A stretch of 29,429 bases of DNA. Origin: a virus (lineage: Duplodnaviria; Caudoviricetes). Below, in pieces: positions 1 to 18,924 of the stretch. Position 1 is the stretch's first letter, and every line of letters begins with the position of its first letter. The translations under genes were made by a program, and so were the position numbers. The notes below the pieces were generated by a model, which had not been told where the DNA came from, did not search any database, and saw only the letters and a list, made by a program, of their open reading frames with translations. Location of the stretch: the IMG/VR virus record IMGVR_UViG_3300006114_001327, positions 1-29,429 of that record. The stretch is one strand, 5' to 3'.

Positions 1-1585
1 CATGCCTTTTTTGACGCCATTCTTCATAAGCCTTCTGGTCTTTTGCTAATTGCTTTTCTAGTTCCGCTTCATTAACCCATGCTTTTTTGGCATAGTATTC
101 CATGGATCTATTTTTAATGGACTCGGGCGTCTCTTTGCCGGACATCAAATCATCCCATGCGGCTTTTCTTACATCTTTTAAACCAGCATACTTGTCTAAA
201 ATAGTGTCCGTACCTAAATCATAAATAATAGAACCAGGATCCGCTTTATTAAGAAAAGGCATGTCTTTTCCATGCCAGTTATATTTTTCTTTCATTATTG
301 CTGGATTAGAAAACCTAATGGCAGAATCTAGTACATTTTCCATTTCCATACCACGAGAAGTATTAGCTGTTTCTCCAGCTTCTTTAGTATCACCTCTTCT
401 TAAAGCGGATTCTCTTCTTTCAGCAGCTTGGTCTGCAAATTCTAATGGATTTCTTACATGGTCTTTTGGATACCATCCTTGGTCGGCAAGTTGAACTAGA
501 GGGTCATTTGCCTTGCCGGTGCCCATTCTTTTGGTTATGTAATTGGCGTAAGGTCCTTGGATCCAATTGTTATAAGCATTTTGAATAGTTTCAATTTCAT
601 TTTCATGTTTAATGATTTCATCCGATAGATCAGTACTATTAATGTGTCTAGTAACGGCATCCCTTAAATCTTTTCCCCATAGAGCAGCCGCTTTTGGATC
701 TCCTTCTGGCATAGGGTATTCGCTTTTGTAATCTTCTATAAAGTTATTGGTTTCATCCCAAACTTTAGGATTTGGGTTTTCTTCTAACTGTTTCCACCAA
801 AGAGTAAATGGGCTTGGATTATCCGCCAAGTCATGGTAATACATAGACTCGTCTATAAAGTTTCCTAGGTTGCCTTGACCTATTAAATCTCCCGAACCAA
901 AACTTGTTGGCCACTGCCCTCCTTTAGGTTTAATCATAGACATAACTGGAGGATTAAGAAACTTGGCTCCTGGAATTAAAGGTTCACTAGAAAGTATTTT
1001 AGAAGCTGCAGTTTCTCCAAGCGCTTTGGCACCTTTAGCAATGGCAGGAGCGGCACTAGTCACACCTTTGGCAACAGCAAAAGGATCAATAACCCCGCCA
1101 ACAATGTTTCTTCCTCCGGCGCCGCCTATATTTTCTGAATAAGCAGCTGGACCATTTTTATAAAACTGAGGGAACATGCTGTAATAATCTTCTGTGGTTG
1201 GCAATGTATTTTCTTTATTAACTATACCGGGGGAAAGATAATTTAATCCCATTCTACCAAGCGATTCAATATCCCCAAAAACTCCAGGAATAGAAGACAA
1301 GGTTCCTTTGATAGTGCCTACCATACCAGGGGCCATTCCTTCGGTAAAAGGAGTAGTTAGGTTACTGAGGTCATACGGATTTACGGGCTGTCCTGCTCGG
1401 TTTCTTGCAACCGCTACTTTCATTTCACTTTGACTGGGCTGGGGGTTTGCTTGGAAAGGGCTAAAGCCAGCGTATTGAGCTGCGTCACTTGGGCTCATGC
1501 CAAGGCCTACTAATTTCTCATATTGCTCTGATGGACTTACTTGCCCTTCTTGAACCGTAAGTTGGTTGCTATTGTCATAAGGCAT
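1..1585 (-). CDS. Large hypothetical protein (>=528 aa), truncated at the left window edge; possibly virion-associated
   Basis: Not in the ORF track because its stop lies outside the window. ATG at 1585 preceded by AGGAG, overlapping the terL stop; my translation stays open to the edge (MPYDNSNQLTVQEGQVSPSEQYEKLVGLG...). Ala/Gly-rich N-terminal half. Confidence 0.75.
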   Translation of the reverse strand, partial: MPYDNSNQLTVQEGQVSPSEQYEKLVGLGMSPSDAAQYAGFSPFQANPQPSQSEMKVAVARNRAGQPVNPYDLSNLTTPFTEGMAPGMVGTIKGTLSSIPGVFGDIESLGRMGLNYLSPGIVNKENTLPTTEDYYSMFPQFYKNGPAAYSENIGGAGGRNIVGGVIDPFAVAKGVTSAAPAIAKGAKALGETAASKILSSEPLIPGAKFLNPPVMSMIKPKGGQWPTSFGSGDLIGQGNLGNFIDESMYYHDLADNPSPFTLWWKQLEENPNPKVWDETNNFIEDYKSEYPMPEGDPKAAALWGKDLRDAVTRHINSTDLSDEIIKHENEIETIQNAYNNWIQGPYANYITKRMGTGKANDPLVQLADQGWYPKDHVRNPLEFADQAAERRESALRRGDTKEAGETANTSRGMEMENVLDSAIRFSNPAIMKEKYNWHGKDMPFLNKADPGSIIYDLGTDTILDKYAGLKDVRKAAWDDLMSGKETPESIKNRSMEYYAKKAWVNEAELEKQLAKDQKAYEEWRQKRH

Positions 1586-2999
1586 AAGGATTAACTCTCC
1601 TTGGCTTAGTTTCATCAATGTAAATATCCATGTCCACTGGATCTGGATCGATATTAAGAAAGTTCATATCCCTTAAAAGCCTGAGTGCTTGTGTCATAGT
1701 ATCCACATAATCATCATGAGTAGCTTGGGGGAATGAGCAAACTTGACTCATAAACTGCTGAGCCCAATCCCTAACTTCTCCCTCCCATTTAGTGCTTTCA
1801 GGAATAAAAACCCTTCCCCTTTCTATTATATTGGAAACTACATGAAGTCGCTGAACTTTATCGGCTTTGCCTGGATTGTAAGCTCTTACAAATAAACCAG
1901 CCCTTTGTAAATCCTGGAGTAGGCTTATGCCCGAGCCTTTATCTTCTATCAGAATAAGATCCACTTTCTTTCCTGGCTCCCCATAGATGGCGGAATAATC
2001 TTCTATGACTCTTGGTTTAAGATCCGGATAAGTTAGTCTTTCTGTCCAGGCGTCTATAAGCATGACCGACCATGGTCTATCCTGAGGCTTAAATACGCCC
2101 CAAACCGTACAAGCCGTAGGATCATTGCTAGTTTTTTCTGTGAACGCCGTGTCATAACTTTGTAGTACATAAGTGAATTCTGGGAAAGGCATGTCGGATG
2201 GCCATAACTTAAACCAGGATCTTTTGACAATACCACCTTCTTCCGGATCTAGAAGTTCGGCGTAAAGCTCTTGGCGCCCTAACTGCGTGCCTTCATATTG
2301 TGCTATTGCATTAAAGAAAGTTGGGGCAAGGTTATCTTTATTCTCGTAAGTGGATCCCTGAGTTAATAGAACCGAACCATTTTCATCATAGCTCTCTTCC
2401 ACTAATCTTCTAATAAGATCCGTTGGTTTAGGGGTAGTGGTTACTATAACCTGAGGGTTGGCTCCAAGCCTCAAACCAAACATCATCATATCCCAAACTT
2501 CTTCCGCTTTATCCCAAGCCGCAAGCTCATCACACCACATCCTATGATGCTGTGGTCCTCTTAGACGATCGGGCTCTTGTGCTGAAAATCCTTTGATAAC
2601 CGAGTCATTGATAAGAATGACTTCTGAGATAGTTCGGTTGTAGGATTTTATCATTTGACTAGGAAGACAGGCGAGAATACCCGAGACACCTTCAATACAG
2701 GTATCTCTAATATCTCCACTGGTAGGCGCAATAATTCCGCAGCGAACCCTTGGATGACTAATTGCATACCAGCAAATATCTTCAGCACCAGTCCTAGTTT
2801 TACCAAAACCTCTTCCGGCAAGGATAAGCCAGGTAGTCCACCAATCCTCTTCCGGGGTTAATTGTTTTTCTCGGGCAGAATTAAGCCATTCAATTCTTTT
2901 GTTTAAAACTATGAGGTCATGTAAAGTAAATTCTTCCAACAAAGATTTAAACTCCTGGGGAGTTGTTTTTGAGAAATCTATGTTGGCTAGTGCATTCAC
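1575..2999 (-). CDS. terL: Terminase large subunit
   Basis: Walker A AGRGFGKT, Walker B WCDELAAW, coupling motif VTTTP, RNase H-like nuclease motifs QSYDTA and HDDYVD. Confidence 0.96.
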   Translation of the reverse strand: MNALANIDFSKTTPQEFKSLLEEFTLHDLIVLNKRIEWLNSAREKQLTPEEDWWTTWLILAGRGFGKTRTGAEDICWYAISHPRVRCGIIAPTSGDIRDTCIEGVSGILACLPSQMIKSYNRTISEVILINDSVIKGFSAQEPDRLRGPQHHRMWCDELAAWDKAEEVWDMMMFGLRLGANPQVIVTTTPKPTDLIRRLVEESYDENGSVLLTQGSTYENKDNLAPTFFNAIAQYEGTQLGRQELYAELLDPEEGGIVKRSWFKLWPSDMPFPEFTYVLQSYDTAFTEKTSNDPTACTVWGVFKPQDRPWSVMLIDAWTERLTYPDLKPRVIEDYSAIYGEPGKKVDLILIEDKGSGISLLQDLQRAGLFVRAYNPGKADKVQRLHVVSNIIERGRVFIPESTKWEGEVRDWAQQFMSQVCSFPQATHDDYVDTMTQALRLLRDMNFLNIDPDPVDMDIYIDETKPRRVNPYAL

Positions 3000-3355
3000 T
3001 TTTTAAGTTTAGATGCGAAGTTTTGAGCTATGCTGTCTATGAGTTGGAGACGAACTTCTAAAGGAGCACCGTCCGCTCCAGTAATTTCCACAGACCTTCT
3101 TTTTGAGTGACCGTATTGAACTAGTTCTTTAAGACAGTCTTTCTTATCTCTTAAGGAAATGTTTGGATCATAAGCAATCTTGGCAAGCTCCATAAGCGGA
3201 TCCCCGAAAGTATCCAAAATGTCTTCCCACACCTCTATTTGAGTCTGACGTTTGGTTTCCCTACCGACCACAATACCGGGAGTTGGTTTATCCTTGATAG
3301 TCGATTCAGGTTTCATTTTCTTGGGAATTTTAGTTACCCATTTTCGTTCGGCCAT
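2996..3355 (-). CDS. terS: Probable terminase small subunit
   Basis: 119 aa, immediately upstream of and overlapping terL by 4 nt; C-terminal KRRSVEITGADGAPL resembles TerS tails. Confidence 0.7.
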   Translation of the reverse strand: MAERKWVTKIPKKMKPESTIKDKPTPGIVVGRETKRQTQIEVWEDILDTFGDPLMELAKIAYDPNISLRDKKDCLKELVQYGHSKRRSVEITGADGAPLEVRLQLIDSIAQNFASKLKK

Positions 3356-3385
3356 AGCAGTTTTTAGTGAATTGTATTTCCTTCT

Positions 3386-3415
3386 ATTATATCCACGTCA
3401 AGACTTAACTTTCAA
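3386..3415 (-). promoter_or_regulatory. Sigma70-like promoter for terS-terL
   Basis: Minus strand TTGAAA-N18-TATAAT, about 30 bp upstream of the terS ATG. Confidence 0.5.
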
Positions 3416-3417
3416 CC

Positions 3418-3627
3418 GGTTTTATATATAGCAAAGAAAACACTAAATTTTTTTCATATACCGACTTTCAAAACCGTTGTGGTTAACATATTAACTGTTA
3501 TTAGTAAATATTAGAACTACTATTAATTAAAACCTAGTAACTATAAGTATCTTATTAGTATATTAGTAAATTATACTTTTTTCAAAAAAAATAATTTTTT
3601 CCTTTTTATTTTCCTATATATAAAACC
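3418..3627. repeat. ~210 bp AT-rich element, copy A, with 14-bp perfect terminal inverted repeats
   Basis: ggttttatatatag (3418-3431) is the reverse complement of ctatatataaaacc (3614-3627); several internal TATTAG units; homologous to 25376-25585. Confidence 0.85.
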
Positions 3628-3642
3628 ACCTAATATTAACGC

Positions 3643-3737
3643 TAACCCATTGATTCACCGTCAATCAACCTCAACACCTAATTTGTAACCCATTGATTCA
3701 CCGAAATCTGGTTTTCATGTAACCCATTGATTCACCG
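3643..3737. repeat. Three perfect 18-bp direct repeats TAACCCATTGATTCACCG
   Basis: Copies at 3643-3660, 3686-3703 and 3720-3737, separated by 25 and 16 nt. Confidence 0.92.
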
Positions 3738-4151
3738 TCACGGTGTATTCTGAATACAGCGAAAAACCAAGAAATCTTCCAAAGAAACCCGGTATTTTTG
3801 GACATCTTCCACCGTATATTGGTTAATTTCACCGGCCAAACTCCCCGGAATCCCATAAAAATCCCCCGAAAGTTCCATAAAAATCCAAGAAATCCCACCA
3901 TTTTTAACCTGAATATAGTGCCAATTCACCTGTTCTTGCTCTAATCCCCGCTGACTTTTAAAGATAACGGTATCTTTTTTTGCCGGCATTTTACCATGTT
4001 TTAACTCAATCCAACCTTCAAAACCATTAACACAATAATTAACATCCGGCATACCAACCGAAACACCATTCTCAACCCTCTCCCACCTACCAGGCAAATC
4101 AAGCAAACGAATCTTGGCCCTTAACTTATGCCAAAGTAATTTTTCCGACAT
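3738..4151 (-). CDS. PD-(D/E)xK nuclease, VRR-NUC / Holliday junction resolvase-like
   Basis: MSE...W, GMPDV, WIELK and Q..W motifs in a 137 aa protein. Confidence 0.8.
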   Translation of the reverse strand: MSEKLLWHKLRAKIRLLDLPGRWERVENGVSVGMPDVNYCVNGFEGWIELKHGKMPAKKDTVIFKSQRGLEQEQVNWHYIQVKNGGISWIFMELSGDFYGIPGSLAGEINQYTVEDVQKYRVSLEDFLVFRCIQNTP

Positions 4152-4155
4152 GAAC

Positions 4156-4464
4156 TTATTTCCAAGCCTCCAAAATATCTAGTAGGCGTCTATAAAACTT
4201 CTGTCTATCCACCATAACCCCTGGTTGGTATAACTCTATAAACTCAATTAAAGGATCATCATCCAAACGTATATCACCATTTTTTACAAATAAAGCCTGC
4301 TTAGCATCCCCCATATAAGACTTAGTCTCACCATAAATTTGCTCCGTCATAGGAGCATCCATACCTTCTTTCACTTCCTCAATTCTTTTTTTAACTAAAT
4401 CATCCGGAATATCTTCCTGCCCTAAATAAAGTTCTTTTTCTCGCTTATTTATCTTCGCCACCAT
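4156..4464 (-). CDS. Hypothetical protein (102 aa)
   Basis: AGGAGG Shine-Dalgarno upstream; part of the co-directional gene run. Confidence 0.7.
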   Translation of the reverse strand: MVAKINKREKELYLGQEDIPDDLVKKRIEEVKEGMDAPMTEQIYGETKSYMGDAKQALFVKNGDIRLDDDPLIEFIELYQPGVMVDRQKFYRRLLDILEAWK

Positions 4465-4607
4465 TTCAACAACCTCCTTCTTCCATGTTTAAGTACTACT
4501 TTAAAAAAATGATATCTACTAAAAACGCCTCTTTTAAAACGAGCATTTCTTCTTTCCCTTGCCATTTTAGACCTATTTTTTCTAGGTTTTAGTTCTATAA
4601 ATCTCAT
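4449..4607 (-). CDS. Small Arg/Lys-rich protein (52 aa)
   Basis: Not in the ORF track. Starts with an ATGA overlap on the upstream stop; MRFIELKPRKNRSKMARERRNARFKRGVFSRYHFFKVVLKHGRRRLLKWWRR. Confidence 0.5.
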   Translation of the reverse strand: MRFIELKPRKNRSKMARERRNARFKRGVFSRYHFFKVVLKHGRRRLLKWWRR

Positions 4608-4831
4608 TTAAGCAACCTTATTTTCATTTGGTCAAATACTTTCTCTCTATATTCCGGAGGAACATTATCATTAACTATACCCCAGGCAACCATGGTGGCC
4701 TGTGTCCAAGCTTCAAGCCAAATAGCTTTTGGGTCAGTTAAAAAATCTTCTTCCGCCTTCGCTACTTTTAAAAGCTTAACCCAGTCATCATAAGCTTCTT
4801 CTTGCTTCTCTTTAACGAATCCTATCAGCAT
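4604..4831 (-). CDS. Hypothetical protein
   Basis: ORF track starts at 4897, but ATG 4831 (MLIGFVKE) has a GGAGG SD and is the more likely start. Confidence 0.65.
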   Translation of the reverse strand: MLIGFVKEKQEEAYDDWVKLLKVAKAEEDFLTDPKAIWLEAWTQATMVAWGIVNDNVPPEYREKVFDQMKIRLLK

Positions 4832-4832
4832 A

Positions 4833-4907
4833 TTACCTCCACCACCCAAAAGGGAATGATTTATTAAACTCGGCAACTTTTTTCCACCATTCATCACTAT
4901 ATTTCAT
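4833..4907 (-). CDS. Putative 24-aa Trp-rich peptide
   Basis: MKYSDEWWKKVAEFNKSFPFGWWR; its ATG sits in a copy of the array junction motif and its stop lies just upstream of ATG 4831. Confidence 0.4.
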   Translation of the reverse strand: MKYSDEWWKKVAEFNKSFPFGWWR

Positions 4908-5181
4908 TTCTAATTCGCTTTCCTTCGGATGGATTTTTTTCCATCATTTCAATCTTTTCTTTATATGGTTTCAACACTTCTATTTCTTCTTTCAACAAAC
5001 TAATTTCTTCTCGTAATACACCAATCATATGTCCTGCTTCAGTCAATTCTGCTTCTTGTTGGCGTAGCATAATCGCTGATTCTCTGTAAAGAATAATAGC
5101 TCTACCTGCGTGTTCAGTTTCTTTACCCAATAATTTAATACTTACACCTTCTAATTTATCCACCAATTCATTTGCAGTCAT
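4897..5181 (-). CDS. Array gene, MTANEL-family hypothetical protein
   Basis: Begins MTANELVDKL and contains MLRQQ, both shared with paralogs in the array. Confidence 0.75.
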   Translation of the reverse strand: MTANELVDKLEGVSIKLLGKETEHAGRAIILYRESAIMLRQQEAELTEAGHMIGVLREEISLLKEEIEVLKPYKEKIEMMEKNPSEGKRIRNEI

Positions 5182-5541
5182 TTATCTCTCCGTTTCAATT
5201 GTTTCACTACGCTCTTTACTACAAGCCTTACCACAATATTCACTGTATCTACTTTCTGTTGTTACCTTTGTTGGGCATTTAGTAAAGTAATGATTACGAC
5301 CATTTGCGTACCATGTGTAAACTGTGCAACCATCAACTTCTGCGTACTTATGTGGTGTAGCCTCGGCTATTTCAGCCTGTCTACGTGCTTCTTTATCTTG
5401 AGGGCTTGATAATAAAAGCCAACCACAAAAAATAAATCCCCCAACAATACCAAACAATGAAACCACAAGTATTAAAGATAAAATTATTCCACCAATAATA
5501 TCAGTGGCATCACCTAAAAAACCCCATAATCTTTCTTTCAT
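5182..5541 (-). CDS. Array gene, predicted membrane protein
   Basis: Long hydrophobic segment IIGGIILSLILVVSLFGIVGGFIFCGWLLL followed by a Cys-containing domain (VDGCTVY...HYFTKC). Confidence 0.75.
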   Translation of the reverse strand: MKERLWGFLGDATDIIGGIILSLILVVSLFGIVGGFIFCGWLLLSSPQDKEARRQAEIAEATPHKYAEVDGCTVYTWYANGRNHYFTKCPTKVTTESRYSEYCGKACSKERSETIETER

Positions 5542-5837
5542 TTCTCACTCGCCTTTCTTAGTATTGCCAAATCTCTTGCAACCAAAAACTCATTTAAACG
5601 GTCTTGTAACTGTTCTATTTCAGATTCTGATGCTGATACTTTTAGGCGCTGTTCTTCCGCAAAGTTTTGAATAAATCTATTTGCATTTTTTAAATCTGCT
5701 ATTTCTTGGGCTTGTTGACGTAACATGGTGGATGCTTGTCTAGTAAAGTGATGATTGTCAAGGCTTTCAAAGTCACCTACTGGAATTTCATCTAATAAAT
5801 CAGCCAATTGATTTGCTGGTAGTTCATTTGCTGTCAT
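5538..5837 (-). CDS. Array gene, MTANEL-family coiled-coil protein
   Basis: MTANEL...MLRQQAQEI...ILRKASEK. Confidence 0.75.
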   Translation of the reverse strand: MTANELPANQLADLLDEIPVGDFESLDNHHFTRQASTMLRQQAQEIADLKNANRFIQNFAEEQRLKVSASESEIEQLQDRLNEFLVARDLAILRKASEK

Positions 5838-5840
5838 TTC

Positions 5841-6011
5841 TCACTCGCTTTCTTTAGGTTCATTAAAAAACTCAATAAATTTTTTAAACACTTCCATTTG
5901 TTCTTTTGTCATTCTATTCACATATTCATCACCCTCACGAACCCATCGCCAAATTACTTTGTTATGAAATTCAACCTCTTCATATGCTTTCCATTTTATT
6001 TTTTCTGTCAT
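5841..6011 (-). CDS. Array gene, hypothetical protein (56 aa)
   Basis: Not in the ORF track. MTEKIKWKAYEEVEFHNKVIWRWVREGDEYVNRMTKEQMEVFKKFIEFFNEPKESE; fills the gap, with an ATGA overlap at its start. Confidence 0.7.
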   Translation of the reverse strand: MTEKIKWKAYEEVEFHNKVIWRWVREGDEYVNRMTKEQMEVFKKFIEFFNEPKESE

Positions 6012-6205
6012 TTCTCAATCTCCTTATATTCCCAAAGCCAACATGAGTCAATGCCGTAGTATATGTATTTACCCTTGCGTTGCACTTTTTCTAGCCACCT
6101 ACAGTCACAATTACCAACCCGCACTGGACGCCAAGCAAACCATTCGTGCCAGTTTTCCAACCTTAATTTTTCATATTCCCACGATTCACCACAGTTAAAT
6201 TTCAT
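6008..6205 (-). CDS. Array gene, Trp-rich hypothetical protein
   Basis: WHEWFAWRPVR...RWLEKVQR; ATGA overlaps at both ends. Confidence 0.75.
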   Translation of the reverse strand: MKFNCGESWEYEKLRLENWHEWFAWRPVRVGNCDCRWLEKVQRKGKYIYYGIDSCWLWEYKEIEK

Positions 6206-6657
6206 TTTTCACCTTTTAAATATGATTCTATTGCTCTTGCAAATTCAATTGTGTATGCTTCATTCATCATTTCAGAATGATTTGGTGGGCATAAATCTAA
6301 TATTTTTTCATCAGTAAGTTCACGCAGCTTATCGTATCTACCAATCAAATAAGACCTTGTATCTAATGTTTCATTCTTTTCTTTGGTTTTTTGAATACCA
6401 TTCCAATAGCCAGTTGCGTATATAGCAGATTCCCTATCCTCAATCTCTTGACTAAAATCAGATAGCCTTTGTAGTGCTAGTTCTTTTTTCAACTGTCCAA
6501 TATTTAACTGTAAATTGTTTGCATCAATGATTTGTTTAAGCATTGCTATTTCTTTGGCTTGTTGGCGTAGCATATCGGGTATTTCGTGAATAAGCCTATC
6601 ATATTCCTCACCCCTGAACATTTTTGTTAATTCATCTGCTAGTTCATTTGCTGTCAT
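6202..6657 (-). CDS. Array gene, MTANEL-family modular protein
   Basis: MTANELADEL, MLRQQAKEI and LRELTDEKI modules. Confidence 0.75.
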   Translation of the reverse strand: MTANELADELTKMFRGEEYDRLIHEIPDMLRQQAKEIAMLKQIIDANNLQLNIGQLKKELALQRLSDFSQEIEDRESAIYATGYWNGIQKTKEKNETLDTRSYLIGRYDKLRELTDEKILDLCPPNHSEMMNEAYTIEFARAIESYLKGEK

Positions 6658-6839
6658 TTTTCGTTCGCTTTCCTTAATTGTGTTTCAAAATCACCATCTT
6701 TCCAGTCCCAACCAAAGAAAAACTTGGTCATCTTTTTATGAAACCAATTTGGTTTTTTGCAAACAAAAACCTTTAAATCGCCACCAATAACCCAACAACC
6801 TGCTTTTGCTGGTGGGTGTGTAAAAACGTAATTCGTCAT
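6654..6839 (-). CDS. Array gene, hypothetical protein (61 aa)
   Basis: KKPNWFHKKMTKFFFGWDW; ends LRKANEK in a junction repeat. Confidence 0.7.
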   Translation of the reverse strand: MTNYVFTHPPAKAGCWVIGGDLKVFVCKKPNWFHKKMTKFFFGWDWKDGDFETQLRKANEK

Positions 6840-7534
6840 TTCTCACTTGCCTTTCTTAGTATTAAATGTGCAAAATAATGTTGTTGAGTAGTAAATCCCT
6901 GTTGCATAGCAATACCATCTTCATGCGATTCTGCCCACAGTTTGTTTATTTCCTCATCTGTTAGTTCACGCATTGGGTGGTCATACAATGCAGTATAGTT
7001 AGGATGTTTTAGTGCATCAGAACTACAAATTGTAGTAAACTCAGGTTTATCAAACCCATCCATTTTAACCATCATAGCAACAGGTTTTTGACTAAAAAAT
7101 GGCTTGGTGTAAAGGAATTCAACCTTCTTTCTTGTTTGCCAATCACTTCCTGAACCTGAGTCAATATACATATATCCATATCCATCAAAGTCATAACGCA
7201 TTGCCACTGGTTCAATTGGGTGTGATTGGGTGTCAGAATGGGTGATGGCTAATTGCTTTAAATACAACTGACGAGTTTCTTCTAAGCGTTCTTTTAACTC
7301 TTCAATTTCTTTGGCTTGTTGACGTAGCATGGCAGAAACTTGTTTACTTTGAGCACAACAAGACCATTCATTTAAATCTGCTAGTTCATTTGCGGTCATT
7401 TCTTTATCCTCATTAAAACACTCTACTAATTCTTGAATAAGTTCTTCCCCAACTTTTGTTAATTTAGGCAAAGAAAAACATTCACGACAACCCCCTAAAT
7501 AAATGCCATGTTTACATTTGCCGTAATGACTCAT
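6836..7534 (-). CDS. Array gene, multi-module fusion protein
   Basis: N-terminal CKH...CREC, internal MTANELADL (ATG 7399), MLRQQAKEI, two PVAM blocks, RELTDEEI, ends ILRKASEK. Confidence 0.75.
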   Translation of the reverse strand: MSHYGKCKHGIYLGGCRECFSLPKLTKVGEELIQELVECFNEDKEMTANELADLNEWSCCAQSKQVSAMLRQQAKEIEELKERLEETRQLYLKQLAITHSDTQSHPIEPVAMRYDFDGYGYMYIDSGSGSDWQTRKKVEFLYTKPFFSQKPVAMMVKMDGFDKPEFTTICSSDALKHPNYTALYDHPMRELTDEEINKLWAESHEDGIAMQQGFTTQQHYFAHLILRKASEK

Positions 7535-7677
7535 TTCTCACTCGCTTTCTTTAGTATTGCAGTCATAGATTTTTCTTCTGCCGTAAATTCAAGTGCATCG
7601 CCATAAACTTCATAAACATTTATTGGCTTTTCTAGATACCAACCCATCCATTCTCTAACTTCTTGGTCTTCTGTCAT
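7531..7677 (-). CDS. Array gene, hypothetical protein (48 aa)
   Basis: Not in the ORF track. MTEDQEVREWMGWYLEKPINVYEVYGDALEFTAEEKSMTAILKKASEK, bounded by junction repeats on both sides. Confidence 0.7.
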   Translation of the reverse strand: MTEDQEVREWMGWYLEKPINVYEVYGDALEFTAEEKSMTAILKKASEK

Positions 7678-7680
7678 TTC

Positions 7681-7869
7681 TCACTCGCTTTCTAAAGGTA
7701 CGTCACGCCATTCACCACCCTCAATAGGAATCCAACCAGAATTGTCTGATAATATTTGATAATTCCACCACTGTTGAAGTATTTTTACTTTGTAACCTGC
7801 CTCAACATCATGGCTAGGAATTACTCTTTCAACAAAACGCAATCTATTTGTTGGTGCAATTGTTCTCAT
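7681..7869 (-). CDS. Array gene, hypothetical protein (62 aa)
   Basis: LRFVER...KILQQWW...GEWRDVP; bounded by junction repeats. Confidence 0.75.
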   Translation of the reverse strand: MRTIAPTNRLRFVERVIPSHDVEAGYKVKILQQWWNYQILSDNSGWIPIEGGEWRDVPLESE

Positions 7870-8090
7870 TTCTCACTCGCTTTCTTTAATAGTAATTTTG
7901 AATATTCATATACATTTTCAAAAAGTTCATCTTCAGGAGTTCTGCGTAATACCAACATAAAAGCAACTGACAGTTCTCGTATTGTTGCATCACTTAATTC
8001 ACGCAAATCATGCTTTTGTATCAATTGATACTTTAAATCTTGTATGGCTACACGCAATTCAGCCAACTCTTTCATTTGTTCGTCTGTCAT
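7866..8090 (-). CDS. Array gene, hypothetical protein
   Basis: ORF track starts at 8102; ATG 8090 (MTDEQ) overlaps the upstream stop. Contains LRELSD and ends LLKKASEK. Confidence 0.72.
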   Translation of the reverse strand: MTDEQMKELAELRVAIQDLKYQLIQKHDLRELSDATIRELSVAFMLVLRRTPEDELFENVYEYSKLLLKKASEK

Positions 8091-8200
8091 TTCACTCTCC
8101 ATATCATTTCTTTTTTGTAAGACTCATTACGTGATAACTCAGTCATAAATATAACGCTGCCACAAATCATAATTGAAAAAATAAATGCAAATGTTTTCAT
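8087..8200 (-). CDS. Small putative membrane peptide (37 aa)
   Basis: Not in the ORF track. MKTFAFIFSIMICGSVIFMTELSRNESYKKEMIWRVK; ATGA overlaps at both ends. Confidence 0.55.
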   Translation of the reverse strand: MKTFAFIFSIMICGSVIFMTELSRNESYKKEMIWRVK

Positions 8201-8361
8201 TCCACTAAAACTTTTATAATATCTCTAAAAAAAGAAAACACTTCTTTTTTCTGGAGTAAACATTCCTGTAAAAATAGCATATCTTTATCCAATTCCACAT
8301 AAGGTTCTGGCTGGTAATGAACCCCGATTTTTACTTTACCAGTATCATAAGGTACATTCAT
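8197..8361 (-). CDS. Hypothetical protein (54 aa)
   Basis: Not in the ORF track. MNVPYDTGKVKIGVHYQPEPYVELDKDMLFLQECLL...; ATGA overlaps at both ends. Confidence 0.6.
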   Translation of the reverse strand: MNVPYDTGKVKIGVHYQPEPYVELDKDMLFLQECLLQKKEVFSFFRDIIKVLVE

Positions 8362-8543
8362 GATAAATTCCTTTCATTAAAAAATTCATAATATTTTTCA
8401 AGCGTAATTTCTATAGAATTAAATCTAACTTGACAATAAGGACATTCTCTTCTTCTTTCTACATAATGCATATGTTGATTCGGATCATAAAGTTTTTTAG
8501 AATCAACCACCGAAGTAATGTTATCACAAGTAATACAATTCAC
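8358..8543 (-). CDS. Zinc-ribbon protein resembling the NrdR N-terminal domain
   Basis: CITC...TSVVDS...RRRECPYC..RFNSIE. ORF track starts at 8570; GTG 8543 has a GGAGG SD and overlaps the upstream stop. Confidence 0.7.
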   Translation of the reverse strand: MNCITCDNITSVVDSKKLYDPNQHMHYVERRRECPYCQVRFNSIEITLEKYYEFFNERNLS

Positions 8544-8917
8544 AAAACCTCCCAAGGGAAAACAATCCACTTATCTAAAACTTTTTTTTCACCAAAATAA
8601 TTAAGCGGAGGTAAACTTGCCTGATGGTAAAGCACCCCAAAATCAGCAGCCGGATTCCTTTTCATGATACCGAATAAAGTTTCACCAGTATCATAAATTT
8701 CATCAATAACCAAAACTCGGCAATCCACCGGCAATTTTTCTTCTTTGTCCATAGCTATCATAGGTAATTTAAGCCTGTGGGAAATATAGACGGCGGGAAT
8801 CAAACCACCCCTAGTAACCCCTGCCACTAAATCATATTTTTTATGAATCTGACTAATTAATTTTTGGCAAAGTTCTTCAAACTGATACCAACCAATAACT
8901 TCTTTTTCTTTTTTCAA
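8540..8917 (-). CDS. Type I purine phosphoribosyltransferase (xanthine-guanine PRTase-like)
   Basis: GVTRGGLIPA, PRPP-binding VLVIDEIYDTGETL and C-terminal WIVFPWE, as in Gpt-like enzymes. Confidence 0.88.
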   Translation of the reverse strand: MKKEKEVIGWYQFEELCQKLISQIHKKYDLVAGVTRGGLIPAVYISHRLKLPMIAMDKEEKLPVDCRVLVIDEIYDTGETLFGIMKRNPAADFGVLYHQASLPPLNYFGEKKVLDKWIVFPWEVL

Positions 8918-9102
8918 AATGGCGCCTCCTCAAAGTTGTATACTTTTTTAGGTTTAGGTTTTATAACTAATTTAACTTTAGAAGAATCAAGCATAGCCAT
9001 AAAATCGAGGGCCTCCTGTTTATAATCAAAAGCCCTAAAAGGACCAAATTCATCATAAACCACAAAACGTTTAGCCAATCCAGTTTTTTCTAACTTTGCC
9101 AA
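8914..9102 (-). CDS. Hypothetical protein (~62 aa)
   Basis: Fills the gap in the co-directional run; acidic/aromatic tail FEEAPF. Start uncertain. Confidence 0.6.
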   Translation of the reverse strand: MAKLEKTGLAKRFVVYDEFGPFRAFDYKQEALDFMAMLDSSKVKLVIKPKPKKVYNFEEAPF

Positions 9103-9364
9103 GATATGCCTTACCTTTCTCTGTTAATTTAACCAGCTTTTTACGGCGGTTCTTTTTGTCATAATAGGAAACTATTAGTTTTAAACCAATAGCCGAATGC
9201 AGGTTGTTATAAGCGGTTAATAAACTACAAACCTTGTTATCGGAAAGATACCGACAAAGCGCCATGGTTTCCGAAGGCTCTTTTTCTAAGGAAGCAAGTA
9301 TAGCCTCCATGATGGGGCTGATACCTGCTTTATATTTAATTAAAATACCATCAATTGCTGCCAT
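9071..9364 (-). CDS. Winged helix-turn-helix (MarR-like) DNA-binding protein
   Basis: C-terminal DKKNRRKKLVKLTEKGKAYL matches the MarR wing pattern. ORF track starts at 9448; ATG 9364 has an AAGGAG SD. Confidence 0.65.
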   Translation of the reverse strand: MAAIDGILIKYKAGISPIMEAILASLEKEPSETMALCRYLSDNKVCSLLTAYNNLHSAIGLKLIVSYYDKKNRRKKLVKLTEKGKAYLGKVRKNWIG

Positions 9365-9372
9365 AATACTCC

Positions 9373-9471
9373 TTATATTAAAAATGCCAAAACAGTAAAA
9401 AAATACATAAAAATGGCAAATAACAAAGTCCCTAAGACAATTTGCCAAAGTGGGGGCGCCTTATCTTCCAT
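9373..9471 (-). CDS. Small membrane peptide (32 aa)
   Basis: Not in the ORF track. MEDKAPPLWQIVLGTLLFAIFMYFFTVLAFLI with a GGAGG SD. Confidence 0.55.
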   Translation of the reverse strand: MEDKAPPLWQIVLGTLLFAIFMYFFTVLAFLI

Positions 9472-9751
9472 GGAAGGCCTCCAAAACTTTATTGAGAGCA
9501 TCTAAACTTTTTCCGCCAATATGCCACCGGTATTCCGAAAATGGAGTATCCATTTCTTTCCAATCATAAATAGTGGCGACGGTTCCATTTTCAAAAGTTA
9601 AAATCCACTGGCAGGTAACTTTATCCATGCCGTTATCATTTGGGCCATAATTAGGCTCTCCAAAAGTGTCTACTAACTGAGAATAATAGGCGTTAATATA
9701 ACCTTGGAGGCCTGTGCCGTTTATGCGGCCATCTTTAATAAAAGAATGCAT
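9461..9751 (-). CDS. Phage hypothetical protein (96 aa)
   Basis: AGGAGG SD; LQGYI...LVDTFGEP...ATIYDWK...WHIGG pattern, which I recall from phage early proteins. Confidence 0.75.
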   Translation of the reverse strand: MHSFIKDGRINGTGLQGYINAYYSQLVDTFGEPNYGPNDNGMDKVTCQWILTFENGTVATIYDWKEMDTPFSEYRWHIGGKSLDALNKVLEAFHGR

Positions 9752-10006
9752 TTAAACACCTCCTTTTAAATTAAAAGCCATGGAAGAATAAGATAACTTA
9801 CCGCCTTTGGCGATCATGGCTTTACGCCATGTCCTAATGAATTTAGGATAGTCTTTATATTGCATGAAAAATGGAATAGTTTTGTAAGGCTCGGCGTTGT
9901 TGCCTTTATTCCATAAGGTTAGTTTGCCCTGACAATAAGAATCCGGTGCAAAACTATTGTCGGCACGAAATCCTATGTTTGCTCTTTCATTACTAATTTT
10001 ACGCAT
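9752..10006 (-). CDS. Hypothetical protein (84 aa), first gene after a promoter
   Basis: AGAAAGGAAAGAAAG leader before the ATG. Confidence 0.7.
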   Translation of the reverse strand: MRKISNERANIGFRADNSFAPDSYCQGKLTLWNKGNNAEPYKTIPFFMQYKDYPKFIRTWRKAMIAKGGKLSYSSMAFNLKGGV

Positions 10007-10048
10007 CTTTCTTTCCTTTCTATTTACGGCACTATTGCCGTTAAATTA

Positions 10049-10078
10049 ATTATAACGGCACTATTATAAAAAAATCAA
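10049..10078 (-). promoter_or_regulatory. Sigma70-like promoter
   Basis: TTGATT-N18-TATAAT followed by TAATTTAAC; same architecture as 18985-19012. Confidence 0.65.
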
Positions 10079-10081
10079 CGA

Positions 10082-10462
10082 TTATTTTTTATTTTTTTGT
10101 AAAAGTTCCTGAACCTCTTCTGGACCTAAGCGTTCATGGTGTTTTCTTGCTTCGTGTTGGGCTATTCTTTTCTTTTCTTTTTGCAAAAACTTTTTATGCT
10201 GGCTTATGGTTTTTTTAGCTTGGGTTGGTAGTTGCATTTCTGGGTCTACTATCTTAAGCATAAAATTGCCTTCTTGGACATATCTTGTGGATGCTCTTTT
10301 GATGAGTCTTTTTAAAAAAGTTGACTCTACTTCATAAGTAGAAAATCGGTAACCACATTCTTTATTAAGGCACCACCTCCTTCGCCATTGTAAATTTTGC
10401 ATAGGAGCAGTAAAAGATACTTTAGTTTCCGACCCACATTTATAACATTTAATTGCCGCCAT
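10082..10462 (-). CDS. Zinc-ribbon protein (NrdR N-terminal-like) with basic C-terminal extension
   Basis: CYKC...TKV...RRRWCLNKECGYRFSTYE. Confidence 0.7.
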   Translation of the reverse strand: MAAIKCYKCGSETKVSFTAPMQNLQWRRRWCLNKECGYRFSTYEVESTFLKRLIKRASTRYVQEGNFMLKIVDPEMQLPTQAKKTISQHKKFLQKEKKRIAQHEARKHHERLGPEEVQELLQKNKK

Positions 10463-12405
10463 TATTTAACCTCCCCCCAACTTTTACCAAATTCCGCATC
10501 CACCAGTAAAGGCACTTTTAATCCTGGTATCTTAGTCATCAACTCAATAATTTCCAATACCGCCTCTTTTACTTCTGGTTTATGTTCTATAGAAAAATCT
10601 AATTCATCATGAACCGTTAAAAGCATAGGAACTGTGTCCATTAATCCGGCTTTGTGAATAGAAACCATAGCCATCTTAATAAGATCAGCCGCCGACCCCT
10701 GTAATAATCTATTAAGTGCTTTGTGGGTAAAGGATCTTCTAATTTTAGGACCCCATTTTTCAAGCGCCTGATCATAAGGCAAAAAAGTTTCGTTGTCGTG
10801 GTTTGAGCTTGGTTCATATAAATTGAATCTTGCGTATCTGCCGGCAAAAGTTCTTATATAACCTCTTTGGCTTGCTCTTTGACTGGCCAAATTATATATA
10901 TCTTTGACAAAAGGGAATTGGTTATGATATTGGTCAAACAAAGGTTTGACTTCTGAAAGTTCTCTTCCTAAATTTTTAGCAAGCGCCTTTTCTCCCATAC
11001 CATAAACCAAGCCAAAATTAATATTTTTGGCTTCTTTTCTTGGGACTCCTGTAAGGTTGGAAACAAACTCATGAAAATCCGTTTTAGGGTCCGTGTAGTA
11101 CTGACTTCTAGCGAGTTCAGCCGACTCTCCGTTTCCATAATGAACTAGCATTCGGTATTCAATTTGACTATAGTCAAATGACCCCCAAGAAGCATGACCT
11201 AAATCAGGCACAAAAATAGATCTAATAAGCGGTCCTAATTCAGGATCCCTAGCAGGAATATTCTGTAAATTAGGGGTGGAGGAACTAAATCTGCCGGAAA
11301 CCGTTCCGGAGTCGTCTGATCTTAATGGATGGAATTGCCCAAAAAGTCTTCCATTTACATGGCTTTCTAAAATGTAAGACCTAATAAAAGTATCTCTTGC
11401 TTTAGTTAATTTACGACACTCAGCAACCTCCGGCAAATTGTCCTCAAGCCACTTAGACCTAAAAGAAGGCTTGCCAGTATTGGTGGTTGGATAGATAAGA
11501 TTTCTTTTTTTAGCCAATTTTTCTACATCTGCTGCTGCGTAAATATTTAAACCATTTAAAGATTTTTCAATAGTTTCTATTCTTTGAGATAAAGCATCAT
11601 CAGCAAGCCTAGCCTTATCAAGATCAACCCTAACCCCATGTTTTCTCATTCTAAATAAAATAGGTAAAAGAGCGGATTCTAACTCAAAAAGAGAAATAAG
11701 ATCCGCCTCCTCTAATAAAGGTTTTTGGCAGTTCCATACTTTTATAGCTAGTGAAGCGTCGGCTTCTGCGTAAGGGCCCACCAAGGCAGGTGGGCATCTC
11801 CAGATATTGCTTGCCTGTTTTCTATCGGGTTGTCCTCCATAGGCCCTAGATGCCCATTTATAAAGGCTATCCTCCGCCTTACTTTCGCCAAGGTATTTCT
11901 GAGACAGTGCATTGAGTGAATAGCTGAAAGCATGTTCATCAAGTAAAGGTTCGGCAATTTGGATATCCCTAATAGCTCCTCTAACTTCAATACCAAGGGT
12001 CGAGAGCCAGCCGATATCGTATAGTGCGTTTGCAAAAATCTTTTCCGTTTTTTCATTTTCTGTAGTTTCACGGATAAACTTAAGTACGGATTCCCTATCC
12101 TGGTTTTCCCCAACTGTGTGTCCGATCGGAAAGTACCAGGCCTGGTCTTTTGTGGCCACTGAGATGCCCGCAACAAAACCTTCACCGGTGGCCCAACCTG
12201 GGCCTGTTTCAAAAATTTTTGGGTCATATGTCTCCGTATCTATAGCAACCTGGTCAATTCCGGTCAAATTCGGAAAGTCTCGGGGTTTCCAACCTGTTTC
12301 TGGTATTGCCGGCATAACTCTTGCCATTTTTTGCTTCTCACCGGTTTTAACCGGTTTTATGGTTTCTACGTCTTGCCAAAAAAGACCGTCCGAGTCATGT
12401 CTCAT
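10462..12405 (-). CDS. polA: Family A DNA polymerase with 3'-5' exonuclease domain and no 5'-3' exonuclease
   Basis: ExoI IDTET, SGRFSS..PNLQNIP, motif A DYSQIEYR, motif B RKEAKNINFGLVYG (Phe at the E. coli 762-equivalent position), motif C TVHDE. Confidence 0.96.
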   Translation of the reverse strand: MRHDSDGLFWQDVETIKPVKTGEKQKMARVMPAIPETGWKPRDFPNLTGIDQVAIDTETYDPKIFETGPGWATGEGFVAGISVATKDQAWYFPIGHTVGENQDRESVLKFIRETTENEKTEKIFANALYDIGWLSTLGIEVRGAIRDIQIAEPLLDEHAFSYSLNALSQKYLGESKAEDSLYKWASRAYGGQPDRKQASNIWRCPPALVGPYAEADASLAIKVWNCQKPLLEEADLISLFELESALLPILFRMRKHGVRVDLDKARLADDALSQRIETIEKSLNGLNIYAAADVEKLAKKRNLIYPTTNTGKPSFRSKWLEDNLPEVAECRKLTKARDTFIRSYILESHVNGRLFGQFHPLRSDDSGTVSGRFSSSTPNLQNIPARDPELGPLIRSIFVPDLGHASWGSFDYSQIEYRMLVHYGNGESAELARSQYYTDPKTDFHEFVSNLTGVPRKEAKNINFGLVYGMGEKALAKNLGRELSEVKPLFDQYHNQFPFVKDIYNLASQRASQRGYIRTFAGRYARFNLYEPSSNHDNETFLPYDQALEKWGPKIRRSFTHKALNRLLQGSAADLIKMAMVSIHKAGLMDTVPMLLTVHDELDFSIEHKPEVKEAVLEIIELMTKIPGLKVPLLVDAEFGKSWGEVK

Positions 12406-13374: not shown

Positions 13375-14313
13375 CTATAGATCGAAAAGTGAATCTTGGT
13401 AAAGAGAGTTTGGTTCAGGCAATACTTTAAGCCACTCAACAATTTCAAGCCCCGTCATCATACGCCTGGCCATATGTTCATACTGAAGTTGTTCAATAGT
13501 TAATCCATGAAGCGCCGCTCTTTCTGCTATGACTTCTACCATGTGTTTTGGTATTGTGGTTATGTGAGAACCCATTTCATACCGATTAGGGTTTTCATTA
13601 CTAGTAGCCATTTCCATTAATTTTCCATTATGCAAAAACTTTATTTTTCCCATGACTGCTGCGTAAAGCCAGGATGCTGAATCTACCGAGTACCAGGGGA
13701 CCTGTCTTAACATGTTTTCACCAGTAGCCGCTAATCCATGAGTTTTCTTTCCAGGTAGTTTTCGGTGAACATAATTAGACCAAGCAAGACGGCTTTTTTC
13801 CGGTAAGTCATTTCTAGGAGAAACACAAATATAATCCGCCATATCAGAAACCTCAAACATCCTAGCCTCAGATTCATTTTGGTGAAAAACGGGTAAAACT
13901 ATATTGCCAAATTCTTTAGTTAATACTTTAAAGTTTTCGTCAGAAGTTTTAATTGCCTGAGTAATTTCTTCTTCACCTGCCGTTACTCCTGGTGATCCTG
14001 GAATGACATCTAAGTTTATTAACCATATCTGGATATGACTTGGAATAAGTTTCATAACATCCTGGTAGGTAGCAATTAAATCCTGAAGCTCTACTTTTTT
14101 ACCTTTAGACCAAGCCGTAAAAGCACCGGAGTCAAGCATTATTTCTTTAACCGAGCCACCTTCTAAACCACAAAGTTCAGCCCACCTCTTGGCTTCTTTG
14201 ATGTAGTGGTCATGGCAAGAGCAAAGCCTATAAGTAAACCCTCTTGCCAATTTTTCTTCTACCTCAGCAGTAGCCCCAATAGTACCAGAGAAAAAATATT
14301 TAACTTTAGACAT
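13375..14313 (-). CDS. dpdA: DpdA-like 7-deazaguanine DNA transglycosylase (TGT fold)
   Basis: TGT-family motifs MLDSGAFT, NLDVIP, PVFHQ, THGLA and YSVDSASW, directly downstream of queF-folE-queC-queD-queE. ORF track start is 14328. Confidence 0.85.
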   Translation of the reverse strand: MSKVKYFFSGTIGATAEVEEKLARGFTYRLCSCHDHYIKEAKRWAELCGLEGGSVKEIMLDSGAFTAWSKGKKVELQDLIATYQDVMKLIPSHIQIWLINLDVIPGSPGVTAGEEEITQAIKTSDENFKVLTKEFGNIVLPVFHQNESEARMFEVSDMADYICVSPRNDLPEKSRLAWSNYVHRKLPGKKTHGLAATGENMLRQVPWYSVDSASWLYAAVMGKIKFLHNGKLMEMATSNENPNRYEMGSHITTIPKHMVEVIAERAALHGLTIEQLQYEHMARRMMTGLEIVEWLKVLPEPNSLYQDSLFDL

Positions 14314-14749
14314 TGCGCCAGTACTCAAAAGTTGGCCAGAAAGGAATTCCGCCTCTTGGGGTAAACTGTCCTTCTACTTTTAAATATTCCGGATCCAATA
14401 AATCAACAAGCGCCTGAGCAATCCTAGTAACACAGGACTCATGAAACTCTCCTACTTGTCTAAAAGAACCTAAAAATAATTTCCAAGATTTAGATTCCAC
14501 GCAAAATTCCCTAGGAATATATTCAACCACAATAGTTGCAAAGTCAGGCTGCCCCGTTAGAGGACAAAGAGAAGTGAATTCAGGAGCAATAATTTTAATC
14601 TTGGTTTCAGCATGAGCAAAATTATTTGCTGTTTTAAGTTTCATAGGATTAGGAAACTTTTCCAATAATTTAATATCAGCACCATCATAGTGATAGTCGC
14701 TTTCTTTTCCTAATGCTTTTAAATGTTCTGTTTTTGATAGTTTTTCCAT
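14306..14749 (-). CDS. queF: NADPH-dependent preQ0 nitrile reductase, unimodular (type I) QueF
   Basis: EFTSLCPLTGQPDFA (catalytic Cys/Asp), QueF motif ESKSWKLF, FHE and PRGGI. Confidence 0.93.
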   Translation of the reverse strand: MEKLSKTEHLKALGKESDYHYDGADIKLLEKFPNPMKLKTANNFAHAETKIKIIAPEFTSLCPLTGQPDFATIVVEYIPREFCVESKSWKLFLGSFRQVGEFHESCVTRIAQALVDLLDPEYLKVEGQFTPRGGIPFWPTFEYWRNV

Positions 14750-14750
14750 T

Positions 14751-15308
14751 TTAGTTCCTGATTAAGTTTAACAATTCTTCTTTAGATGACCGATCCCATT
14801 CAAATAAACCTTTCATAGCACTAGTTACCGTGCTGGATCCTTGTCTTTGAATGCCTCTTGATTCCATGCATAAATGCCTACATTCCATAATAACCCCGAC
14901 TGCTTTTGGATTTAAAGCATTTTGAATAGCCTCCGCTATCTGGCTAGTTAATCTTTCTTGTACTTGTAATCTTCTTGCATAAATATCTACTACTCTTGAA
15001 AGTTTAGAAAGTCCTACAATTTTACCATCCGGAATATAAGCCACATGAGCCTTTCCAAAAAATGGTGCCAAATGATGCTCGCAGTGACTATAAACTGGAA
15101 TATCTTTCACCAAAATAATTTGGTCATAATTTTCCGCCCCATCCTCAAAAGTTTTTAATATTTCTCTTGGGTCTTGTTTATACCCATGAGACCAATGCTC
15201 CCATGCTTTGACCACTCTTTTAGGGGTTTCTAATAATCCACCTCTAAAACTATCTTCCCCGATAACAATAGAAAGTAAATTTCTAATAACCGTTTCTTTA
15301 TCAGACAT
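14751..15308 (-). CDS. folE: GTP cyclohydrolase I
   Basis: [47 protein letters not shown] track start is 15332. Confidence 0.96.
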
Positions 15309-16098: not shown

Positions 16099-16100
16099 TT

Positions 16101-18639: not shown

Positions 18640-18924
18640 TTATTTGCCCTTTCTAGCAGTTACGCGAACTTCTGGGTAAGTCGTAGTTTTTGTATGAGCA
18701 CGCATAAATTGAGGGGAAAGTTTAGCGCGGACCGCATCCATATCTAAACTATCTCTACTTTTTTCTGTTACATTAGCATCATACATAAGACCTTCATGGG
18801 AACCTAAACCTAAAGCAATTAATTGCTCTTTAAGTTTTTTCTCTTCTGCCTGTAAAGCAGCGATTTCGGCTTTTAGAATGCCGAGTTGGTCAACAAGTGT
18901 TAAAGTGGTATCTATCGTTTGCAT
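18640..18924 (-). CDS. Phage hypothetical protein with N-terminal coiled coil
   Basis: VDQLGILKAEIAALQAEEKKLKEQL; AGAAAGGATAGAAAG leader. Confidence 0.75.
   Translation of the reverse strand: MQTIDTTLTLVDQLGILKAEIAALQAEEKKLKEQLIALGLGSHEGLMYDANVTEKSRDSLDMDAVRAKLSPQFMRAHTKTTTYPEVRVTARKGK

Follow-up and report, generated by a model that had tools for sequence, protein, structure and literature searches.

Why should gene after gene in a small-gene region of a tailed phage end and begin in the same short sequence? The question is raised by IMG/VR record IMGVR_UViG_3300006114_001327 (Duplodnaviria; Caudoviricetes), of which positions 1 to 29,429, the full 29,429-nucleotide stretch referred to here as the window, were analysed. 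On the minus strand between 8200 and 4833, small genes are joined by a repeated junction sequence. An initial annotation, made from the letters of this DNA, had described a gene-cassette array in which the junction acts both as a translation start signal and as a site for the gain, loss and shuffling of genes. The comparisons reported here favour, with a probability of about 0.65, a related reading: the junction would couple translation and bind ribosomes and would at the same time offer ordinary phage recombination a short linker of homology, as one of several such anchors.

The junction itself is real and non-trivial. Nine minus-strand copies of 17-27 bp lie within 4904-7889. A 17-nt core with at most three mismatches finds the same number (4904-7882), against a chance expectation of 0.04 on average and 1 at most in 100 dinucleotide shuffles. 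The eight boundaries annotated at the outset are thus borne out, and the copy at 6008-6024 is added to them. One extra core match, at 22991-23007, is a gene end without an ATG. Five copies (7866, 7674, 7531, 5834, 5538) fit the annotated consensus exactly, while the core differs at two positions at 6836 and 4904 and at three at 6654. The best copies, described as alike over about 30 bp, agree at 27 of 30 positions (5538-5567 versus 7531-7560). The annotated frame readings also hold: the upstream gene ends in KASEK-stop or KANEK-stop at 7866, 7531, 6836, 6654 and 5538 and in ESE-stop at 7681 and 5841, and KRIRNEI-stop spans 4904. Each motif supplies the next ATG as proposed, including that at 4907, which opens a 24-aa module found in relatives. 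The motif was absent from the other 28 gene starts of the window, core genes included, so the case named as refuting, an equal occurrence at core gene starts, did not hold. The copies and two weaker remnants are as follows.

7866-7889, minus strand: junction copy, main allele; ends gene 8090-7866 (KASEK-stop) and starts gene 7869-7681
7674-7693, minus strand: junction copy (ESE-stop); upstream stop in frame with the next start; starts gene 7677-7531
7531-7557, minus strand: fullest junction copy; stops in three frames at 7553-7551, 7540-7538 and 7533-7531, the last overlapped by the start codon 7534-7532
6836-6860, minus strand: junction copy, second allele; two core differences
6654-6677, minus strand: degenerate junction copy (KANEK-stop); in locus L148 the next gene here is a homolog of 5181-4897
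6008-6024, minus strand: degenerate ninth copy (KEIEK-stop); three mismatches; not counted in the initial annotation
5834-5857, minus strand: junction copy (ESE-stop); starts gene 5837-5538
5538-5564, minus strand: junction copy (KASEK-stop); starts gene 5541-5182
4904-4925, minus strand: junction copy read in the third frame (KRIRNEI-stop); read through; starts a 24-aa open reading frame (ORF)
5178-5194, minus strand: weak junction remnant; four mismatches; also a swap point
8087-8103, minus strand: weak junction remnant; five mismatches; upstream edge of the array

With the 24-aa ORF added, a gene tiling that ignored the motif divides 8200-4833 into 13 small genes, matching the earlier count of about 13.

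8200-8087, 8090-7866, 7869-7681, 7677-7531, 7534-6836, 6839-6654 and 6657-6202, minus strand: array genes 1-7
6205-6008, 6011-5841, 5837-5538, 5541-5182, 5181-4897 and 4907-4833, minus strand: array genes 8-13
4907-4833, minus strand: Trp-rich 24-aa ORF, a mobile module with its ATG at 4907

The 24-aa ORF stands free in loci L278 and L195; in L259 and L269 it is joined in frame to the C-terminus of the upstream gene. None of the 11 array genes scanned gave a Pfam match over the cut-off or a named PHROG family. For gene 6657-6202 the Atlas matches were unnamed viral clusters only, and an Atlas Ea22 score of 0.77 for an array protein is a lead and nothing firmer. Short homologs numbered 627, and the 120 listed were nearly all unnamed. 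Beside the array, the likeliest start of the gene listed from 4897 (4604-4831, minus strand) is 4831 (75 aa), in agreement with L148, L230 and L269.

Similar arrays occur elsewhere, according to a motif scan of the kind suggested at the outset. Scans returned at least 124 plus 66 viral, 122 metagenome and 25 genome stretches; from 340 records, 22 were removed because they matched by chance or had no motif, and 62 because they nearly duplicated others. At least 256 non-redundant loci remain, the window included, with 536 motif copies and 517 unique junctions. All loci were chosen for holding the motif, which limits every cross-locus comparison below. Of the 24 loci from the genome scan, six phage-like contigs were kept; the other 18, each a single match in an unrelated genome, were discarded as chance. 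A query with the nuclease-like gene gave six loci, of which four lacked the motif and were dropped, and one with the PRTase gene found no relatives. A candidate in an Odoribacteraceae metagenome-assembled genome (MAG), L130:3164-4866, has three motif-like copies about 840 bp apart, each before a 4-codon ORF; it is a different repeat and was dropped. The carriers are phage contigs of up to 341 kb with unrelated backbones. In the largest (L232:8-961, minus strand), a single copy accompanies genes for a clamp-loader ATPase and a TctC receptor at a locus of jumbo-phage type. Records with several copies have them in one cluster, e.g., seven within 1.5 kb of a 202-kb genome; the exception is one record with a third copy at the opposite end. 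Complete downstream ORFs are at most 150 aa long in 430/460 cases.

Exchange of neighbours is concentrated at the junction. Upstream families have more than one next gene in 46/56 cases at the motif versus 21/65 at motif-less junctions, and downstream families more than one partner in 53/66 versus 25/73. Gains, losses and reorderings of genes in relatives thus have their breakpoints at the motif much more frequently than at the remaining junctions, as had been predicted, and the opposite outcome, a kept gene order with breakpoints unrelated to the motif, was not what we found. Motif-less control junctions, taken either from within 600 bp or for having a 4-nt overlap too, swap in 34-39% of families (Fisher p 6e-5 or lower); for the overlap controls the count is 14/36. 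Pairs with 60 bp upstream in common differ downstream in 542/596 cases at the motif versus 109/238 at motif-less junctions, and those with downstream DNA in common differ upstream in 392/441 versus 151/282. The swapped partner also has the motif in 486/542 shared-upstream and 311/392 shared-downstream pairs. Shared-upstream identity falls just after the start codon, and shared-downstream identity rises about 24 nt before it. Since the motif is kept both with upstream and with downstream genes, the crossovers appear to fall inside it. Alignment ends reach 32.4 per kb at motifs, compared with 9.4 at other starts and 3.5 inside genes, i.e., densities 3.4-fold and 9-fold higher. In total, 491 junctions combine 310 upstream with 323 downstream families in 471 distinct pairs.

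Individual loci illustrate these exchanges. Although L148 is 98.8% identical over window positions 1-4831, six of the 6657-4833 cassettes are missing from it: there, the gene whose end is 6654 runs directly into a homolog of gene 5181-4897, and this into the gene at 4831. In L046, the 5177-5544 cassette (gene 5541-5182) occupies another array position, before the 8090-7866 gene. In L008, the 7674-7888 cassette (gene 7869-7681) lies between different neighbours, and alignments end at both motif edges. Across the set, 3' alignment ends cluster at 7862-7866 in ten alignments and two lie at 6008, while four 5' ends lie at 7553. Contigs of four public runs have joints or loose ends at 7866 (joints in two of the four runs), 6836, 6659, 5567, 5537 and 7560, and also at intragenic anchors. 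None of the listed go-back joints in the assembled contigs, which excised circles would give, lies at two junctions. The alleles carried by swapped pairs are discordant in 23/28 shared-upstream and 7/10 shared-downstream pairs involving the second allele (the pairs are not independent), which indicates more than one crossover position. Exact identity reaches 20 bp in 35% and 23 bp in 23% of unrelated junction pairs, whereas 0% of motif-less junction pairs share 15 bp exactly. Taken from these comparisons, the junction behaves as a short homology patch rather than as a fixed recombination site.

What is kept at the junction is the nucleotide sequence. Of the 517 junctions, 411 have an upstream gene that ends in the 4-nt overlap of stop and start, 39 one that ends at an in-frame stop leaving a three-base gap, and another 39 one that ends before the core (25 of them at the third-frame stop); 19 are unresolved and nine are other. 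The 489 classified junctions therefore hold the motif in three readings, with similar base conservation in all classes and with 257 (overlap), 24 (in-frame stop) and 28 (before core) upstream families, seven of which change class between loci. Fullest copies have a stop codon in each of the three frames. Codon choice in the tails is far from background: a pyrimidine-ending Ala codon occurs in 3/92 peptide-chosen non-seed tails, compared with a 51% background, while a control Ala codon seven residues upstream splits 48/29/1, and the Ser codon is identical in 18/18 non-seed tails. Because three readings keep the same bases and codon choice is skewed, conservation acts at the nucleotide level, in line with the earlier claim that DNA or RNA rather than peptide is retained; by this sequence evidence, it could stem from selection but equally from descent and homogenisation. 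Among 3268 gene ends, 253 read KASEK and 51 KAQEK, the latter being the third allele. The second allele has the look of a chimera in which the third allele gave the 5' half and the main allele the 3' half.

The junction also has the marks of a translation signal. Against a 15-nt 16S rRNA tail, the main allele is computed to form 12 base pairs at -11.3 kcal/mol, compared with -6.5 for shuffled motif regions and a median of -6.6 for motif-less starts. This tail was read from six of eight 16S loci in relatives of the Burkholderiaceae MAG that holds L126, and may not be that of the host. Neisseria meningitidis belongs to the Betaproteobacteria. In that species, RNA-seq supports a 16S tail of 15 nt (PMC6288834, Table 1). 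The start codon follows the core by 6 nt, aligned as for a Shine-Dalgarno site, and motif starts are less structured than other starts (median -1.8 versus -3.1 kcal/mol). The motif-blind tiling picks the motif ATG as gene start in 453/536 copies. Within 3300-10500, promoter-like sites number 21 versus 25.9 in shuffles and none recurs at junctions; no terminator-like site overlaps a junction. The junction thus probably recruits the ribosome for the next gene, and translation may be coupled across it, judging from stop/start arrangement and computed pairing.

Could translation account for everything, with near-random microhomology joining and survival of those recombinants that keep an intact junction, so that breakpoints only look targeted? 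The Shine-Dalgarno-like placement, the 6-nt spacing and the low structure would all be expected, junctions without the motif swap on some 6 bp of identity, and 4-nt overlaps with an intragenic Shine-Dalgarno site are widespread (Huber et al., PMC6728339). However, a start signal needs no identical 20-27 letters on hundreds of unrelated genes, nor would it be missing from the window's 28 other starts and confined to one cluster in multi-copy genomes. The motif accompanies both upstream and downstream genes, and motif-less overlaps of the same architecture swap less than half as often (14/36 versus 46/56), which makes this explanation improbable. Conservation of a C-terminal charged helix that tags the proteins of a paralogous family for stability or targeting, with the DNA repeat hitchhiking and the other frames accidental, draws on the single frame of 411/517 junctions, on the frequent KASEK and KAQEK ends and on allele differences that fall mostly on synonymous positions of the KASEK frame. 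Yet 78 junctions, with 24 plus 28 upstream families, have another frame or a non-coding core at the same base conservation, families switch frame between loci, and the commonest synonymous codons are nearly absent (3/92, with one Ser codon throughout); we regard a peptide tail as highly unlikely.

A dedicated sequence-specific factor, be it a recombinase, a nicking enzyme, a reader of a Chi-like hotspot or a translational regulator, would turn the array into an integron-like platform, and the strict orientation, single-gene intervals, sharp edges and very high conservation across unrelated backbones are what it would leave. Nevertheless, the searches for such machinery speak against it. Of the 38 loci, 33 were searchable as carrier records: tyrosine integrase (PF00589) was found in 1/33 (1/14 near-complete) and serine resolvase (PF00239) in 0/33, and the Pfam scan of the 44 window ORFs detected no integrase, as annotated. 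Eight DNA folds of four junctions, on both strands, gave no hairpin (z -0.76 to 1.53). No protein cluster of at least 200 aa is common to the loci, the largest covering 23 of 288 proteins, and five candidate host-type genomes hold no match better than E 0.4. The crossover point varies, and anchors of unrelated sequence behave similarly, so that such a factor seems quite unlikely. An assembly artefact, in which short-read assemblers mis-join at the repeat and give false gene orders, has on its side that all sequences are metagenome assemblies and that assemblers could be misled by the longer intragenic modules. Against this, window copies are exactly identical over no more than 24 bp, the window gene order recurs in L149 (L285 was collapsed with L149 as a near-duplicate), and junctions are spanned by individual contigs with 0-2 differences in two runs from different years (X11 records 2, 5 and 7; X17 record 31). 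The junctions themselves are independent of assembly, and this reading is barely credible.

The preferred reading, a translation junction that is also a homology linker, takes a generic recombination linker over an integron since swaps are concentrated at the repeat and integron features were not found. As RNA, the junction would stop the upstream gene in whichever frame arrives offer an extended, interrupted Shine-Dalgarno match and supply the next start codon. As DNA, it would give gene ends that are otherwise unrelated an exactly identical stretch of 14-27 bp, through which ordinary phage annealing and recombination proteins could exchange, insert or delete single genes between co-infecting phages; a dedicated recombinase would not be needed. 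Recombinants would always be translatable, so that linker-flanked genes might spread more easily and keep the linker homogeneous. Its origin was probably the 3' end of a large paralogous small-protein family, from which it would later have spread to unrelated genes. Genes beside the arrays differ between loci, which indicates unrelated backbones, several with annealing proteins; with one representative scanned per cluster, the clusters were ERF (8 proteins), RecT (6), YqaJ (9), AAA_24 (2), primase-helicase (12) and PolA (12). The best linker matches are close to the minimal pairing segment of Red-beta, quoted as 23-27 bp in PMC3945230.

Several observations weigh against this reading. With a 12-nt 16S tail, motif pairing is ordinary (-5.9 versus -5.8). 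About 80% of copies (411/517) encode the same peptide, and the codon bias could stem from recent common descent instead of selection. Stops in all frames are not universal, since the window's 4904 copy and L259 and L269 are read through. The median exact match between unrelated junctions is just 14 bp, and motif-less junctions swap as well (32-39% of families), so the linker is not required. In absolute number, more alignment ends lie inside genes (1499) than at motifs (625); BLAST ends fall at motif edges partly by construction, and motif-chosen loci inflate motif-motif pairs. Only one copy is present in 118/256 loci and in 6/14 near-complete records, and no known annealing protein was recognised in the half genome covered by the window. 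The exchange evidence is wholly comparative and comes from assembled contigs. The dual role first proposed is supported: start signal and shuffling site both stand up to the comparisons, with the qualifications that the junction behaves as a homology patch and not as a fixed site, that it is one of several anchors, others of which lie within genes, and that motif-less junctions also swap.

A bolder version may be considered, in which a frame-terminating, translation-restarting seam of about 24 bp serves as a self-propagating, integrase-free 'plug standard' of unrelated phages on one freshwater host group, circulating hundreds of mini-genes between small tailed and jumbo phages; excised circles may be their vehicle, and a sequence-specific stimulator may take part. 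We consider it possible but doubtful.

Among known systems, the junction resembles Botstein-type linkers and the PeSL cassettes of T4-type phages in the way it works, and it is not an integron. Integrons and CALIN arrays consist of head-to-tail single-gene cassettes in one orientation. The arrays here are alike in this respect, with exactly one gene in 230/280 intervals between consecutive copies and 536 copies on the coding strand versus 0 on the opposite one, but have no linked integrase and no attC-type hairpin, a variable crossover and a site within coding sequence. Boundary sequences in phage HK620 were reportedly described by Clark et al. in 2001. In the linker model of modular phage evolution by Botstein and Campbell, as described in PMC2839356, short conserved boundary sequences target phage exchange and keep regulation intact, and here too exchanges between different phages end in the junction. 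Unlike there, the module is a single tiny gene, the linker of about 24 bp overlaps coding sequence, and one linker serves hundreds of families on unrelated backbones instead of one lambdoid group. PeSL cassettes of the T4-type phages RB49 and phi1 (Arbiol et al. 2010, PMC2839356) likewise place a repeat before ORFans in a plastic region, with insertion, deletion and replacement at the repeat, as met here, and with generic recombination proposed and no integrase. However, PeSLs are an intergenic sigma-70-type promoter plus a stem-loop terminator, while the linker has neither recurring promoter, terminator nor hairpin and would chain genes into one coupled operon. PeSL mini-circles have been demonstrated in that study (PMC2839356); the junction here is known from assembled contigs alone.

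The start-associated sequences (SAS) of Cluster K mycobacteriophages (Pope et al. 2011, PMC3203893) are also asymmetric one-orientation repeats at the ribosome-binding position of non-structural genes, conserved beyond the needs of 16S pairing. The junction differs from the 13-bp SAS consensus, and genes here overlap or abut; SAS mostly follow intergenic gaps of more than 50 bp, remain with the same gene families and have inverted-repeat extensions, and a shuffling role is not described in the sections consulted. As in termination-reinitiation pairs (Huber et al. 2019, PMC6728339), stop and start overlap and the Shine-Dalgarno site lies within the upstream gene end, an architecture found here in 411 four-nt overlaps plus 39 three-base gaps; it is generic in those pairs, while here one repeated sequence marks gene exchange. 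Rad52-like relaxed recombination offers a plausible enzyme class and minimal length, although the assays seen in the accessible part of De Paepe et al. 2014 (PMC3945230) used longer homology regions than a lone linker of 20-27 bp. The junction fails the defining tests of integrons, PeSLs and SAS and is filed under none. No paper describing it was found in a literature search that did not use the motif DNA and lay outside most subscription journals.

Shorter anchors inside the genes would shuffle protein modules likewise.

5032-5086, 5688-5742, 6535-6589 and 7292-7346, minus strand: anchor family A (D3), four intragenic 55-bp copies
6301-6326, 6947-6972 and 7980-8005, minus strand: anchor family B (D7), intragenic 26-bp copies
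5160-5200, 5816-5856, 6636-6676 and 7378-7418, minus strand: shared gene-start module (D2), directly after a junction or inside a long gene

Alignments end at or near several copies of family A and at 6947, 6972-6974, 6293-6331 and 7988-8011 for family B, and L195/L045 join 7377 to 6659 within D2. Because ends fall at short anchors of paralogous modules, the array proteins also appear to be mosaics, and these examples suggest that the intragenic anchors behave as further swap sites, one of several kinds. Two different genes of one array in L008 (4515-4823 and 5709-6011, oriented) have the same 30-residue C-terminal module; the pair shows intragenic module reuse within one genome.

The window covers about half of a tailed phage genome (the record's own estimate is 52% complete), with minus-strand terminase, PolA, two helicases, primase and a 7-deazaguanine cluster. 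Freshwater metagenome runs contain nearly identical DNA: of 24 listed runs, 11 have at least half of the sampled words, and four of these 11 are possible sources; no RNA datasets are among the runs listed as holding the phage DNA. No cultured relative came to light: the array DNA and a 232-aa protein had no match among 50,697 phage records, where a 38-bp junction query gave just six matches, all at E=6. The best polymerase matches (41-46% identical) name no host, and an Rfam search of the window gave no match. Phage-like contigs binned in Burkholderiaceae and Methylopumilus MAGs and the TctC gene of the 341-kb carrier L232 hint at a host; a TctC query of genome contigs returned a single, uninformative 17-residue match, and three MAGs with array-like contigs yielded no 16S end.

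Other features of the window lie apart from the array. A complete-looking 7-deazaguanine pathway adjoins the polymerase:

13375-17332, minus strand: 7-deazaguanine genes (queuine tRNA-ribosyltransferase-like, QueF-like, GTP cyclohydrolase I, QueC, PTPS (QueD), radical SAM)

Its role is probably DNA modification against restriction. The genes at 10006 and 18924 have, judged by eye, a common leader (10006-10080 and 18924-19015, minus strand) with a promoter-like site, a short hairpin and the same purine-rich ribosome-binding stretch; a similar purine-rich stretch lies at 25331-25360 (minus strand). Two AT-rich intergenic blocks of about 200 bp (3418-3627 and 25376-25582) are alike directly and inversely (families D17, D18, I1, I2), with 66% identity over 217 bp via L148, and are possibly origins or promoters. 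Three 21-bp direct repeats, 90-100% identical (3643-3740, D12), separate the nuclease-like gene from the genes that lead to the terminase. Pam3 gp34/gp33/gp32-like genes (22151-23856, minus strand) lie between primase and helicase, and the gp34-like protein is, by position only, a candidate DNA-binding or annealing protein.

Whether phage mosaicism arises by short shared sites or by random joining and selection is still debated, according to the part of PMC3945230 consulted, and the linker is a natural, countable test case with hundreds of junctions, internal allelic markers and matched motif-less controls. The principle is old, but the junction can be tested because it reaches across unrelated phages, stops all frames by design and comes with controls built in. 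The combined all-frame stop and restart is also a simple part for building coupled operons. Furthermore, the linker marks the borders of several hundred small unnamed proteins or modules, which may be candidates for host-takeover or counter-defence functions, and it suggests a way in which a single pool of accessory genes is shared by unrelated phages that mostly have no integrase.

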